This document shows positions 3,066-27,414 of a stretch of 34,682 nt of DNA, one piece after another. Every line of letters begins with the position of its first letter. Positions within the stretch are counted from its first letter, which is position 1. Under the pieces are notes generated by a model. That model was given only the letters and a program-made list of their open reading frames with translations, ran no database searches and was not told where the DNA came from. A program made the position numbers and the translations under genes. The stretch is taken from UHGV virus genome UHGV-0105223. One strand, given 5' to 3'. This DNA is from a virus.

Positions 3066-3683
3066 ATGGCAGATAAAGAACTAAAAGATTGGTGTAAAAC
3101 TTGCAACGTAGAGCCGCCGGCTATGAAATTCAAATGTCCAGAATGTGAGCATAACCCTGATAAAGAACAGATAATAATTTCTAACCGAAGACAAGGAAAA
3201 AATATTTATACAATAAAGGAAGATGTTGCAGAATTAGAAATAAATAGTAAAAAATATGGGAAATTATTGTTCATTATTGATGCTAGCCTCTTAGATATTA
3301 TAACTAAGCATTATTGGGGTGCACGTTGTTATAGAGGGCATTTTTATGCCTATACACATCTAGGCGGATATAAATACATATCCTTACATCGGCTAATAAC
3401 TCAATGCCCTAATAATTTAATGGTTGACCATATAAATCATGATACTTTTGATAATCGTTCAAAAAATTTAAAAATTTGTACAAATAAAGAAAATCAACAT
3501 AATAGAAAAAATTTTGAAGGTGTTAAGGTGACGAAATGGGGATATCAAGTACAAATGAGGGTTAAAGGCAAATTAAAATGCTTTGGAACATATAAAACCC
3601 TAAGCGAAGCAAAACAAGTAAGAATAAGTGCAGAAAAAGAGTACAGACCTTATGTAAAGGAGATTAATAAATATGGAACATAA
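3066..3683 (+). CDS. HNH homing endonuclease with AP2-like C-terminal domain and an N-terminal CxxC...CxxC extension
   Basis: SLHRLI...VDHINHDTFDNRSKNLKICTNKENQHN (HNH_3 type); GV...WGYQVQM...FGTYKTLSEAKQVR (AP2-like). Confidence 0.9.
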   Translation: MADKELKDWCKTCNVEPPAMKFKCPECEHNPDKEQIIISNRRQGKNIYTIKEDVAELEINSKKYGKLLFIIDASLLDIITKHYWGARCYRGHFYAYTHLGGYKYISLHRLITQCPNNLMVDHINHDTFDNRSKNLKICTNKENQHNRKNFEGVKVTKWGYQVQMRVKGKLKCFGTYKTLSEAKQVRISAEKEYRPYVKEINKYGT

Positions 3684-5105: not shown

Positions 5106-6302
5106 CTAGCTAAAGCAAGGAGCTTCTAACTTCATTGAGGTTTGCCTATTAGTATTGCTACTGATAGGTCTTATATCCTCTCCATTAGTGTAATCGACAG
5201 TTCCTGCCGATATTTCTCTTTTACCTTCAAACAAAATATTTATTGAAGCGTTTACATCTCTATCGTGTTCAATTTTACAATTAGGGCAAGTCCATTTTCT
5301 TATGTCTAATGGCATTTTATCCATAATGTAACCGCAACTATGGCATGTTTTACTTGAAGGGTAAAACCTATTTATCTCATGAATGTAAGTATCATCCCAA
5401 TCACCTTTATAATGTAATTGTCTTGTTAATTCTCCCCAAGAACAATCATTTATACTTTTGGCTAAGTTTGACCTTGACAATCCTTTGATATTAAGGTTTT
5501 CTAAATACACAACATCATTCTGCATTACTAATTTATGTGATATTTTATGTAACACATCCGACCTACAATTAGCAATTTTTTCATGTATCAAGGCAACTTT
5601 TAGTCTTTGTTTTTCAAACCTCTTACTGCCTTTTGTTTTACGTGATAAATGCTGTTGTGCTTGTTTTAACTTTTTAGCATACTTTTGTGTGAATTTATGA
5701 TTTTTATATTTATCACCATTTGAAGTTATTACTAAATCTTTTATACCTAAATCTATACCCACCTCTTGATTTGTATGATTTTTAGAATTATAATCTTGCT
5801 TTACTGTTATAGATACAAAATACTTATTTGTTGGTGTTTTACTTATAGTTGCAAATAATATTTTACCCTGTAACTGTCTATGTTCTACCACTTTTATTGC
5901 TTCTTTAAACTTTGGAATATATAATTTACCATTTTCAAATTTTACATTTTGTGGAACTGTAAAACTATTTTTAGACTTTTTCTTTTTGAAAACAGGAAAT
6001 TTTGCTCTACCTTGAAAAAAGTTTGTATATGCACTTTCTAAATGTCTTAAACTACATTGTAATACTTGTGAATTTATCTCTTTTAACCAATAATAGTTAT
6101 CATCTTTTTTTAGCAATGTTAATGCCTTTGCTTGCCCGTAATAATTATCAGACTTCCCTGTTTCTTGATATTGCTTTTTCCTCTCAAAAAGAAATTTATT
6201 GTATACAAATCTTACACATCCAAAATACTTATCGAACATTTCTATTTGATATTTATTAGGATATAACCTATATTTGTATGTTTTTGTTATTTCTTTTTTC
6301 AT
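5106..6302 (-). CDS. tnpB: RNA-guided endonuclease TnpB
   Basis: TYKYRLYP N-terminal motif, FGCVRFVYN, RuvC GIDLGIK / YLENL / DRDVNASINI, Zn ribbon CHSCG...CPNC; catalytic D-E-D all present. Confidence 0.95.
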   Translation of the reverse strand: MKKEITKTYKYRLYPNKYQIEMFDKYFGCVRFVYNKFLFERKKQYQETGKSDNYYGQAKALTLLKKDDNYYWLKEINSQVLQCSLRHLESAYTNFFQGRAKFPVFKKKKSKNSFTVPQNVKFENGKLYIPKFKEAIKVVEHRQLQGKILFATISKTPTNKYFVSITVKQDYNSKNHTNQEVGIDLGIKDLVITSNGDKYKNHKFTQKYAKKLKQAQQHLSRKTKGSKRFEKQRLKVALIHEKIANCRSDVLHKISHKLVMQNDVVYLENLNIKGLSRSNLAKSINDCSWGELTRQLHYKGDWDDTYIHEINRFYPSSKTCHSCGYIMDKMPLDIRKWTCPNCKIEHDRDVNASINILFEGKREISAGTVDYTNGEDIRPISSNTNRQTSMKLEAPCFS

Positions 6303-24614: not shown

Positions 24615-24917
24615 TTAAAACATTTCTTTATTTTTTAATTTTTCAAATTCTTCTTTATTGTCGGCTATTACTATATTCGGACAGCCAAAATGCATAACCT
24701 CATCATTACAATCAGCGAATAAATAGTATAAAGCCGCGTAAAAGTTATCGTATGTTACGTTTAAATCATTCTCTATAATCATTTTGTATTTGATTGAATA
24801 ATCATTGTTGTAAAGTTTCAGTTTATCGAATAAACCTTCAAACCATTGTATCTGTTCTACTGTTGCCAGCTCGGATAATTTATAAAATTTCTTTTCTCGT
24901 TTTTTGTAATTCACCAT
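24615..24917 (-). CDS. Hypothetical protein, inserted AT-rich gene
   Basis: 100-aa ORF between the two TerL 3'-end copies. Confidence 0.7.
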   Translation of the reverse strand: MVNYKKREKKFYKLSELATVEQIQWFEGLFDKLKLYNNDYSIKYKMIIENDLNVTYDNFYAALYYLFADCNDEVMHFGCPNIVIADNKEEFEKLKNKEMF

Positions 24918-24937: not shown

Positions 24938-27031
24938 TTAAAATGGTCTCATTCCTATTACTTTTGTTGTGTTAAAGTTCATTTCATCTTCGAGGCTATA
25001 CCTGATTGCGTCGACCAAATGATTAAACGCATCCACAGGCTCATCATTTACAAAATCGCCGTTTTTATCCCGTTTGTATTGATAATTTTTAAATTCTGCA
25101 ATCGCATTTGTGCAGCTTGGATGAATGATTATTTTATCAAACTGCTGCATATATTTAAGACCGCTTAAAACACTACCTTTGCCTTTTTTTGCGGCAACTG
25201 CATTTAAACCGTAGCTTTGATATTCCTGAACACTCTTTGGCTCTGCGCTGTCACAGATAATACGTTCATTTCTTACGTATTTTTTAACAAGTTCTGAACT
25301 CTCTTTGTTCAAAAGTTTTGTTTGATAAATCTCATTACAGATATAAAGTCTGTTTTGTTCTATTGCACATTCAACAAATGCGAACGGGTCGTTTGAAAAT
25401 CCCCAGTCAATCCCGTATCTGTATTTTGAAAATCTGTTTTTGTCAAAGTCAGCAACTTCAAAGTTTTCAAATACAAGCCCTTCCGCAATCCCCAGTTCAC
25501 CGAGTCCGTAAACCCGCCAAAAATTATTATCGCCTTTTCTGGCTTCGATACTGTCTATTATTGTCTGTTCAAGAAAGGGATTGTCTTTATACGTCGATTT
25601 TATTAAAGTAGCTTTTTGAGGCTCGTCTTTGAAAATCTTATCGTGAACCCAGAACTCATTTGTCGGGTTATAGTCAATAAAAATGTTTTTTCGAGTTCTT
25701 ACAAGAAGTTGTTCAACAATATTATAGTGCTGGTGATTTGCTTCATTCAGATATAAAAAATCACGTCTGCCGCCATGTGCTGAACCCAGTTTATCAAAGG
25801 AAAGAAAAGTTACAATTCCTTTTCCTGCCTGAAAGATTTTATCCGATGATTTGTAGTGTTTGTAAAAATCTATGCCGAACTGATTACAGACATCGGGCAT
25901 ATCATTTAAAACGCCAGTTTTTAGATGCGGAACAGATAAACCGACTATATCAATTTTAACTTTGTATTTGAGCGACAAGGTAACAAGTAGTTGAAGGATT
26001 GAGAATGTTTTCGTTGAATTATGTACTAAAATATCTTTTCCTGCATAAATGCAATAATTGTGGTTATTTTCTACTTCAATATCATATACAACAGACTGAT
26101 TATAAATTTCATAACTTAATATATCATCAATACTTAAACATCTCGCCACATATTCTTTCGGTGATTTACAATTTCTTTTATGCAACATTCCGAAACACCA
26201 TATTTTCCCGCAAGTTGCTTTCTTCCATAAAATCTGCCACCACTTTGAGCAATTTGTCTTATTTCTCTTACTTGTTCCCCTGTTAGTTTTGAATTGCCAT
26301 TGAGAGAGCCACGTTTCGGAGTTATTAAGTTGTGTTTGTATGCGTGTAATAAATTCTCTGATTTTGTTACATATTCCAAATTGTCTATTGCATTGTTTAA
26401 TTTGTTTCCGTCTTTGTGATTTATTTCTAATTTTTGTGGTTTTTCTCCTAAAAATGTTAATGTTATAAATCTGTGAACAGTCCAACTGCAATATTTTCCA
26501 CAATCGTTTAATAACATTGTTTTTAAATATCCGTCTTTCGCAAGTGCAGGTTTCAATATTTTTACTTTGCCAGAATTCTTGTAATTTGTTGACCTTATTC
26601 TCCCCAAATTTGACGCCTCGTATCTGCTGAAATTCGGTATCTGTTTCCATTCCTCTTGCATTTTGTATTTCTCCTTTTTCTTTTAATTCTATCATACTTT
26701 TTAGAGAGATACAACCACCCTCAACAAAAAACTTGTGGTCTGATGTCGCAATAAAACTATTACCATTATTTAATTTTACTTTGTATGTTTCTTTGTGATT
26801 TTTATATCTAAATACATTTTTTACTTTTTCATAATCAAACTTTTTATATTTTTCGTTATAAGATAACACAAAATCACCTATTTGCACTTGTGAAATAGGT
26901 TTATAACCATTTGCAGTATTTATTAGCGTTTCAGGAGCAAAGCACGATGTTCCGCCTTGATTAATAATGTATCTGAAATTATCTTTTAATGCTCCTGCGT
27001 TTTTTCTAAATACAGGCGATAACTTTAACAT
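24938..27031 (-). CDS. terL: Terminase large subunit (PBSX-like), intein-containing; 388 aa after splicing
   Basis: Spliced Walker A NQGGTS|STKT, LYLNEAN, IDYNPT, STYKDNPFL, GIDWGFSNDP, CDSAEPK, NHLVDAIRY. Confidence 0.95.
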   Translation of the reverse strand: MLKLSPVFRKNAGALKDNFRYIINQGGTSCFAPETLINTANGYKPISQVQIGDFVLSYNEKYKKFDYEKVKNVFRYKNHKETYKVKLNNGNSFIATSDHKFFVEGGCISLKSMIELKEKGEIQNARGMETDTEFQQIRGVKFGENKVNKLQEFWQSKNIETCTCERRIFKNNVIKRLWKILQLDCSQIYNINIFRRKTTKIRNKSQRRKQIKQCNRQFGICNKIREFITRIQTQLNNSETWLSQWQFKTNRGTSKRNKTNCSKWWQILWKKATCGKIWCFGMLHKRNCKSPKEYVARCLSIDDILSYEIYNQSVVYDIEVENNHNYCIYAGKDILVHNSTKTFSILQLLVTLSLKYKVKIDIVGLSVPHLKTGVLNDMPDVCNQFGIDFYKHYKSSDKIFQAGKGIVTFLSFDKLGSAHGGRRDFLYLNEANHQHYNIVEQLLVRTRKNIFIDYNPTNEFWVHDKIFKDEPQKATLIKSTYKDNPFLEQTIIDSIEARKGDNNFWRVYGLGELGIAEGLVFENFEVADFDKNRFSKYRYGIDWGFSNDPFAFVECAIEQNRLYICNEIYQTKLLNKESSELVKKYVRNERIICDSAEPKSVQEYQSYGLNAVAAKKGKGSVLSGLKYMQQFDKIIIHPSCTNAIAEFKNYQYKRDKNGDFVNDEPVDAFNHLVDAIRYSLEDEMNFNTTKVIGMRPF
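26018..26944 (-). mobile_element. Intein (309 aa, TerL residues 30-338)
   Basis: Block A CFAPETLI, block B ATSDHKF, block F VYDIEVENNHNY, block G ILVHN followed by Ser+1. Confidence 0.95.
26134..26661 (-). CDS. NUMOD4-HNH homing endonuclease with C-terminal HTH, nested in the +1 frame of the intein
   Basis: EEWKQIPNFSRYEASNLGRIRS; VHRFI...INHKDGNKLNNAIDNLEYVTKSEN; SKLTGEQVREIR...QLAGKYGVS; AAGGAG 9 nt before the ATG. Confidence 0.93.
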   Translation of the reverse strand: MQEEWKQIPNFSRYEASNLGRIRSTNYKNSGKVKILKPALAKDGYLKTMLLNDCGKYCSWTVHRFITLTFLGEKPQKLEINHKDGNKLNNAIDNLEYVTKSENLLHAYKHNLITPKRGSLNGNSKLTGEQVREIRQIAQSGGRFYGRKQLAGKYGVSECCIKEIVNHRKNMWRDV

Positions 27032-27414
27032 CAGATACCCTCTAAAATTTCTTTATCCTCATCGCTTCCGACTACAATATTTATTCCTTTAGCATCAACA
27101 TTCAAATCTTGCTTATCACGCCATTTATCAGGCTGTCTGTTTTTTAGCCAGAAGATACAAGCTGTAGTGTCAGGCGGAGTTTTTTCATCGCCGCAAGCTT
27201 TTTTATAAAGAGATTTAACAACTTTAAAATCTGCTTCTTCTTTTCCTCTTTTTAAGGACTGGAAAAAGTCAGGGTGTTTATGTTTCCAGTTATTTAAAGT
27301 TTTCTCGTCAATTGAGAAATACTCACATAGCTGTTTATCAGTGGCACCTAACAAAGAAAGCTTATAAGCTTGTTCAATATATTCTTCTTTAAATTTTGTC
27401 GGTCTGCCCTTCAT
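27031..27414 (-). CDS. terS: Terminase small subunit
   Basis: GRPTKFKEEY, LGATDKQL, WK..HPDF, PPDTTACIFWLKNRQPDKWRDK; TGATG-coupled to TerL. Confidence 0.9.
   Translation of the reverse strand: MKGRPTKFKEEYIEQAYKLSLLGATDKQLCEYFSIDEKTLNNWKHKHPDFFQSLKRGKEEADFKVVKSLYKKACGDEKTPPDTTACIFWLKNRQPDKWRDKQDLNVDAKGINIVVGSDEDKEILEGI

Follow-up and report, generated by a model that had tools for sequence, protein, structure and literature searches.

How can a complete homing endonuclease gene lie inside an intein but outside the reading frame of that intein, with both frames open, and where does such an arrangement come from? The gene for the terminase large subunit (terL) in the UHGV virus genome UHGV-0105223 raises this question. 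The stretch of DNA that we analyzed, referred to below as the window, is 34,682 nucleotides long; terS, portal, capsid, and tape measure genes were found on it, as expected of a tailed phage, and the sequencing runs that contain it are mostly chicken-gut metagenomes. An earlier note, made from the sequence alone, had described a 309-aa intein with all splicing blocks in the Walker A motif of TerL, and had seen no recognizable endonuclease motif in the intein frame. Both observations were borne out. Compared with intein-less homologues, the intein is an in-frame insertion (98% identity for L001 and 88% for L002-L007 over 388 aa), and TerL minus the intein is a protein of 388 aa in which the Walker A string QGGTSSTKT is restored. 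The splicing residues, in TerL numbering, are C30 (C1), T96-S-D-H99, H337, N338, and S339 (+1), and C30, T96/H99, H337, N338, and S339 are unchanged across seven precursors. The Pfam family Intein_splicing (PF14890) matched with 50.8 bits against a cutoff of 35.8. The 176-aa linker between the two splicing regions is rich in K, N, R, I, Q, T, and C, and a Pfam search matched it to no family. The features of the locus are collected in Table 1. After terL, a 100-aa open reading frame (24615-24917, minus strand) has no family match and is absent from the close relative L001.

Table 1. Features of the terL locus, in positions of the window
Feature	Position	Strand	Description
terL open reading frame	27031-24938	-	697 aa
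TerL N-extein, aa 1-29	26945..27031	-	Ends QGGTS, the first half of Walker A; matches intein-less alleles L001-L007
Whole intein	26944-26018	-	309 aa, TerL aa 30-338, inside Walker A
Intein N-terminal splicing region	26662..26944	-	C1; block B T96-x-x-H99; Pfam PT-HINT, Hint, Intein_splicing
Shine-Dalgarno AAGGAG of the nested gene	26671..26676	-	9 nt before ATG; written within intein codons K-G-E
Nested NUMOD4-HNH endonuclease gene	26134..26661	-	175 aa, 528 nt, +1 relative to the terL frame; I-HmuI-like; N81, H82, N90, N103
Stop-free linker, read in the frame of the intein (the HNH gene's shadow)	26135..26662	-	176 codons; P 2.8e-11; 0 Pfam hits
GTG overlapping the final Trp codon of the HNH gene	26147..26149	-	Same-frame split relatives start the C-half there with ATG
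Intein C-terminal splicing region	26018..26133	-	VYDIEV, penultimate H, terminal N
TerL C-extein	24938..26017	-	S+1 followed by TKT from Walker A; Terminase_3 and Terminase_3C
Terminase small subunit	27031..27414	-	Same operon, upstream of terL; phrog_309, E 2.5e-49

The gene nested beneath the linker had been read in the earlier note as a NUMOD4-HNH-HTH protein with its own AAGGAG, ATG, and stop. The first two domains were confirmed by Pfam (NUMOD4 at aa 3-47, E 4e-12; HNH_3 at aa 62-104, E 3e-14), and the Shine-Dalgarno motif and the open reading frame also stood; the C-terminal HTH is visible just as helices in the structure model (pLDDT 92), and a family profile search gave no HTH family match in the C-terminus. 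AAGGAG also precedes the major capsid gene and three others among the 19 further ORF starts listed. No occluding hairpin was found at the start of the HNH gene (z -0.13 and 0.27), and no promoter-like site was found upstream of it on its own strand (promoter count 5 versus 7.2 expected). The gene's own Shine-Dalgarno and ATG thus support the proposal that the HNH protein is initiated separately, as far as the letters of the DNA can indicate.

I-HmuI is a nicking HNH homing endonuclease from a group I intron of phage SPO1, and it is the single significant PDB match of the nested HNH protein (PDB 1U3E; sequence E 1e-16, fold E 1e-8). The two proteins share length and domain order and differ in their C-terminal halves, with 24% identity in the structural alignment; moreover, I-HmuI sits in a group I intron, whereas the HNH of the window sits in an intein. 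Residues H82, N90, and N103 are invariant across 42 HNH relatives, and we take the functional roles of the His and Asn residues of the HNH motif to be those of I-HmuI. Asn81 aligns with the Asp that precedes the catalytic His in I-HmuI, a position at which Asn is common in the HNH family. The HNH protein has no CxxC motif. Three familiar kinds of locus were ruled out: a canonical intein with an in-frame endonuclease, by an HNH in the +1 frame and a linker with no Pfam hits; a fractured gene or natural split intein, by a linker with no stops; and a group I intron-encoded HNH, by the absence of Rfam matches at gathering score within the window. Elsewhere in the window, there is a second, free-standing HNH_3 gene (3066-3683, plus strand, 205 aa) and an IS605-family TnpB gene (5106-6302, minus strand; PF01385, PF07282, PF12323) on the strand opposite to its neighbors.

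Could two frames remain open over 176 codons by chance? When the HNH protein was kept and its gene recoded 100,000 times with the codon usage of the window, 18.5 +/- 3.3 stops were expected in the intein frame and none of the recodings was stop-free (exact P 2.8e-11). In the remaining alternative frame of the HNH gene, there are 20 stops. None of the 63 HNH codons that stand before AA, AG, or GA ends in T, compared with 42 of 112 elsewhere. In a set of 320 related HNH loci, which contains near-duplicates, the frame equivalent to that of the intein was open in none of the 211 loci below 40% GC, the exception being the later-added locus L330. The overlap is cheap for the HNH protein, as leaving out T at third positions before AA, AG, and GA maintains an open intein frame with no amino acid forced.

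Comparison with relatives points the same way. DNA of nested forms comes from the window, near-identical alleles, and L330, all others being known from protein alone. The linker of P0001 differs from that of the window in one of 176 residues. Between the window and P0002, 19 of 25 linker changes fall on first codon positions, which are third positions of the HNH gene, and this first-position excess is moderately above that of the extein (19:5 versus 47:25). A +1 HNH fits beneath the linkers of P0002-P0006 with scores of 273-319, where shuffled sequences reach at most 19, and also beneath those of P0129 and P0134 (244 and 286); the fit is weaker for P0130-P0133 (36-65). In the allele from run X16, both frames are open, and among the differences listed, 12 of 21 lie on HNH third positions, with 7 changes in the HNH protein and 12 in the linker. 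Therefore, these results show that both frames were kept open through selection, in line with the dual selection that the earlier note had proposed from the open frames, and the HNH frame is kept in seven other protein clusters.

The HNH gene is spanned by contigs of runs X1, X5, X6, X7, X11, and X16, which come from six studies, and none carries a net indel: five runs' contigs have no indel over the gene, and in that of X16 two indels 6 nt apart compensate each other. Run X1 is a possible source of the window, and its contig lacks the first 19 bases of the intein; run X17 gave pieces only and run X18 only an empty junction. That compensating indel errors pushed an in-frame HNH out of frame has a negligible chance of being true, in spite of the in-frame N-half-HNH fusions of relatives P0078 and P0079, given these contigs, the identical shifted linker layout in seven other protein clusters, and the fact that errors would not keep two frames open over 176 codons.

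Does the element move? The histories of intein and exteins disagree. P0001 and the window are 99.4% identical in the intein and 64.5% in the exteins, and P0005 and the window are 58.4% identical in the intein and 96.1% in the exteins. Empty and occupied alleles that are 89.5-97.4% identical to each other occur in three terL lineages, and runs X1 and X6 contain both, the empty alleles being seen as joints that skip the intein. This discordance and the co-occurring empty alleles support the earlier idea of a mobile composite homing element and show, at the level of sequence comparison, that the intein moves between divergent terL genes; its homing looks recent. The intein of P0003 combines parts that resemble the window with parts that resemble P0005, in the manner of a mosaic.

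The nicking substrate suggested in the earlier note, GGAACATCG|TCAACGAAA, proved to be wrong, since it is the joined flank of an occupied allele. In its natural empty form, the site is ACATCA|AGCACA, as opposed to ACATCG|TCAACG in the window, and the seven empty alleles compared, as well as contigs of runs X1, X6, and X18, read ACATCA|AGCACAAAA. The codon of the +1 Ser is AGC in empty alleles and TCA in the window, which suggests that flanking bases travelled with the intein. The nearest annotated terL, that of Dulem virus 31, is intein-less and 69.5% identical. A search for a cultured phage that carries the intein of the window found none, with a best HNH match of about 40%, and searches of viral_contigs with the intein and with P0006 found no locus.

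A terminase-associated HNH of the type of HK97 gp74 would be expected to accompany terL in all relatives and to have zinc-binding CxxC motifs. The nested HNH lies within the terminase operon, and it could be conceived as a cofactor of this type, kept for packaging and not for homing, a reading also raised for brucellaphages in the accessible part of a published report (PMC4422536). We regard this as very improbable. Related HNH genes are found near terL in none of the seven empty alleles L001-L007, and none lies directly downstream of terL in the annotated Dulem virus 31; the protein is I-HmuI-like and devoid of CxxC; and the histories of intein and extein are discordant. Its absence near seven of seven empty alleles and the missing CxxC set the HNH of the window apart from the gp74 type.

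Homing remains the preferred reading of the locus. We are confident that it is a contiguous Walker A intein with a +1 NUMOD4-HNH gene, that the intein likely splices to yield a 388-aa terminase, and that the HNH, likely translated separately, is predicted to nick empty terL and so to spread the element. The terL mRNA would give the 697-aa precursor, whose splicing would follow the C1/His-Asn/Ser+1 route, the standard chemistry of inteins, and the linker would be discarded with the intein. Ribosomes would also initiate at the internal AAGGAG-ATG. The HNH would nick near the empty site like I-HmuI, and repair would copy the intein together with a few flanking bases, so that homing into empty alleles during co-infection would be driven by a nicking enzyme. 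According to the accessible text of one study, I-HmuI-type enzymes nick DNA and I-HmuI cuts occupied and empty alleles alike (PMC3428280); since I-HmuI cuts both, discrimination between alleles by the HNH of the window is not assured.

What are the relatives of this element? A protein search with the intein region returned eight proteins, six of which are terL precursors that share this layout, with 46-99% identity in the intein; the other two are a mini-intein in another gene and an unrelated helicase intein. The K/R/N-rich linker of the helicase intein P0008 does not belong to the HNH family of the window (score 15.9 versus at most 15.4 for shuffles), and it may hide a different nuclease. 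In total, the same nested lineage was found in seven other protein clusters. One member, P0129, looks like a TerS-TerL fusion that carries the nested intein. A second nested +1 NUMOD4-HNH was found in the terL intein of L330 (546-2618), inserted one residue upstream; this HNH is 45% identical to that of the window, and its overlap has no stops at 31% GC. The relatives of L330 are P0130-P0133, among which P0132 lies in a non-terminase P-loop protein.

The remaining relatives are arranged differently. Three collections, each divided into 64 parts, were scanned with HNH profiles, which covered 6 parts of viral_contigs, 3 of metagenome_contigs, and 41 of genome_contigs, so that counts of split and nested forms are not frequencies. 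Among the matches listed, the 12 loci whose HNH shares 50% identity or more with that of the window (L010-L016, L090-L093, and L170; 10 distinct) all have terL split at the position of the window's intein, in the order N-extein plus intein N-half, HNH gene in +1, and then C-half. L250 (2-2581) carries a split intein with a NUMOD4-HNH between its halves in a primase-helicase gene. The N-half stays in the nested frame relation to the HNH in 11 of 11 distinct split loci, and in 6 of 11 the two halves share a frame and the ATG of the C-half overlaps the HNH's final Trp codon; the codon there is GTG in the window and TTG in L330. The linkers of the 11 split loci contain 12-34 stops (11-27 expected) and none shows a deficit; with as many stops as expected or more, these loci hold no relic of a nested past. 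In P0078 and P0079, the intein N-half is fused in frame to the HNH.

Several further arrangements were encountered alongside these. In L062, L063, L073, L078, and L083, an HNH_3 gene lies in +1 of a DUF5131 gene that lacks intein motifs, a ShiLan-like layout. L086 (1523-3724) and L089 (1352-3457) have inteins near the C-terminus of TerL with an HNH_3 gene nested in +2. In L171 (1362-1960), the peptide IIRPTPKQI occurs on either side of an HNH situated at the 5' end of terL, like a recent insertion with duplication.

In a combined tree, which includes the shadow frame, for which the protein model was not designed, nested forms fall into two clades: one of seven rows (98/98) adjoins the 10 split terL loci, and one of four rows (99/98) adjoins the split L250. 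A single clade of split terL forms was neither recovered nor rejected (AU p 0.19, or 0.39 with the fused forms). In the best HNH tree, the sister group of the nested pair is one split subgroup (84/91), and the remaining split forms lie outside; a common origin of the nested HNHs of the window and L330 is rejected (AU p 8e-5). Trees from the splicing halves alone did not separate the order of the states. Together, these comparisons indicate that the nested and the split layout are related by descent, the direction of which the trees do not settle. Because the intein-plus-HNH lineage also occurs split and as N-half-HNH fusions at the same site, it is likely that a single element changes back and forth among the nested, split, and fused layouts.

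Which state came first? We lean, with a conviction just short of even, to a nested ancestor from which the split forms derived, because an open frame is easily lost and hardly gained: the chance of a stop-free frame for the NUMOD4-HNH family is about 1e-6 to 1e-18. There are two separate nested clades, each with split relatives, and two losses suffice, since the tests do not reject a tree in which the 10 split terL loci form one clade. The shared frame relation of the N-half in every distinct split locus fits this order, as do the C-halves of all six same-frame split loci, which begin at the ATG over the Trp codon where the window has GTG and L330 has TTG. Against it stand the absence of a stop deficit in all 11 split loci, with no recently split form with few stops among them, and best trees that place the nested clade amid split forms. 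In addition, the free-standing relatives L171, L017, and L019 also have a start codon over that Trp, and a nested ancestor leaves the first rise of nesting unexplained.

The reverse order, in which the split (fractured) form came first and re-fusion, with the loss of all linker stops, gave the nested form at least twice, is a serious possibility to which we give somewhat less credence. It accords with the model of Dassa et al. 2009, as set out in the accessible part of that paper (PMC2677866), with the best HNH tree (84/91, other split forms outside), with the split layout, among the matches listed, of 12 of 12 loci whose HNH reaches 50% identity or more, and with the rejection of a single origin for the nested HNHs of the window and L330 (AU p 8e-5). 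It would, however, require the removal of about 12-34 stops with no evident benefit before the last one goes; no intermediates were seen, and the decisive branches are without strong support.

Unlikely, in our judgment, is a third course, in which a free HNH gene inserted into a mini-intein and by luck left the frame open, perhaps in a GC-richer ancestor. GC-rich relatives are indeed stop-free or nearly so in the frame concerned (L089, 63% GC, 0 stops; L040, 58% GC, 3 stops), and L171 is a free relative at the 5' end of a terL. Yet the close family has 27-41% GC and 12-34 stops when split, and no mini-intein was found at this terL site among the relatives compared. The earlier note had favored just such an out-of-frame invasion of a mini-intein by a free HNH; with a stop-free probability of 1e-6 to 1e-18 and split inteins as nearest relatives, this was not borne out.

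If the nested state came first, as we lean to believe, nested-HNH inteins may be a source of natural split inteins. We put this forward tentatively: the linker would be dispensable, and a start codon for the C-half would already be in place over the final Trp codon of the HNH gene, so that one nonsense change in the linker would turn the nested intein into a trans-splicing fractured gene. The terL lineage would then hold, at a single site, the nested parent along with its split descendants and the N-half-HNH fusions.

How much of this was known? The novelty of an out-of-frame HNH in an intein, which the earlier note had left to a literature check, did not survive: such arrangements are already published (PMC4422536 and 10.1101/2025.01.02.630785, in their accessible parts; 10.64898/2026.09.14.751524). 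An intein-encoded HNH gene out of frame within terL was described in 2015 for all annotated brucellaphages, in the part of the report available (PMC4422536). Their ORF 8 (Tb, Pr, and others) resembles the nested gene of the window as a same-strand HNH out of frame inside a terL intein; it differs, in a comparison by description only, in being of the zinc-ribbon type and 687 nt long, whereas the gene of the window is a NUMOD4-HNH of 528 nt without CxxC. Some inteins of actinobacteriophages, among them inteins in terL, contain out-of-frame EndoVII-like and antisense nucleases (Gosselin, Arsenault, and Gogarten; bioRxiv 10.1101/2025.01.02.630785, accessible portion). They share with the window a separate-frame endonuclease in an intact intein and signs of continued transfer; their same-strand case, in contrast, is EndoVII-like and lies in frame 3, the HNH that they describe is an in-frame one, and the text does not mention NUMOD4. 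The accessible portion proposes split inteins as a result of invasion or decay, and reports no lineage with both nested and split forms.

A cyanobacterial dnaX intein carries a +2 LAGLIDADG ORF with Shine-Dalgarno motifs and frame-specific selection (Phillips, DeSimone, and Gogarten; bioRxiv 10.64898/2026.09.14.751524). It shares with the window a same-strand overlapping nuclease ORF with its own Shine-Dalgarno, purifying selection on the frame of the nuclease, and coexisting empty and occupied alleles, and differs in its LAGLIDADG nuclease, its bacterial host gene, the presence of mini-inteins, and the lack of reported split relatives. For their own cases, the 2025 preprint (in its accessible portion) and the 2026 preprint favor a lucky invasion of a mini-intein (10.1101/2025.01.02.630785; 10.64898/2026.09.14.751524).

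Fractured genes, in which an N-half is followed by an endonuclease gene and by a C-half that starts in the 3' end of the endonuclease gene, with terminase among the hosts, were described by Dassa et al. 2009 (PMC2677866, available part). They match L010-L016, L090-L093, L170, and L250, whereas the intein of the window is contiguous. The nucleases described there are GIY-YIG and Vsr-like, and the rejoining envisaged runs via an in-frame nuclease and not via an open overlapping frame. The ShiLan domain, from the accessible description (PMC11855218), is likewise a hidden out-of-frame HNH with the host frame open; it differs in the absence of a splicing domain and Shine-Dalgarno and in its host, a non-essential methylase.

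The layout is therefore known, and the window contributes a clear and well-supported example in which the nuclease belongs to another family, NUMOD4-HNH. What appears to be new is the presence of nested, split, and N-half-HNH fused states within one lineage at one terL site. In a literature search that lay outside most subscription journals and preprint supplements, no paper was found that joins nested and split states in one lineage, and none that describes a split intein with NUMOD4. The at least 11 split-intein pairs are candidate protein-ligation tools, and linkers of inteins regarded as "decayed" are worth reading in every frame. The series of nested, split, and fused forms offers a matched set on the origins of natural split inteins and on the gain of nucleases by inteins.
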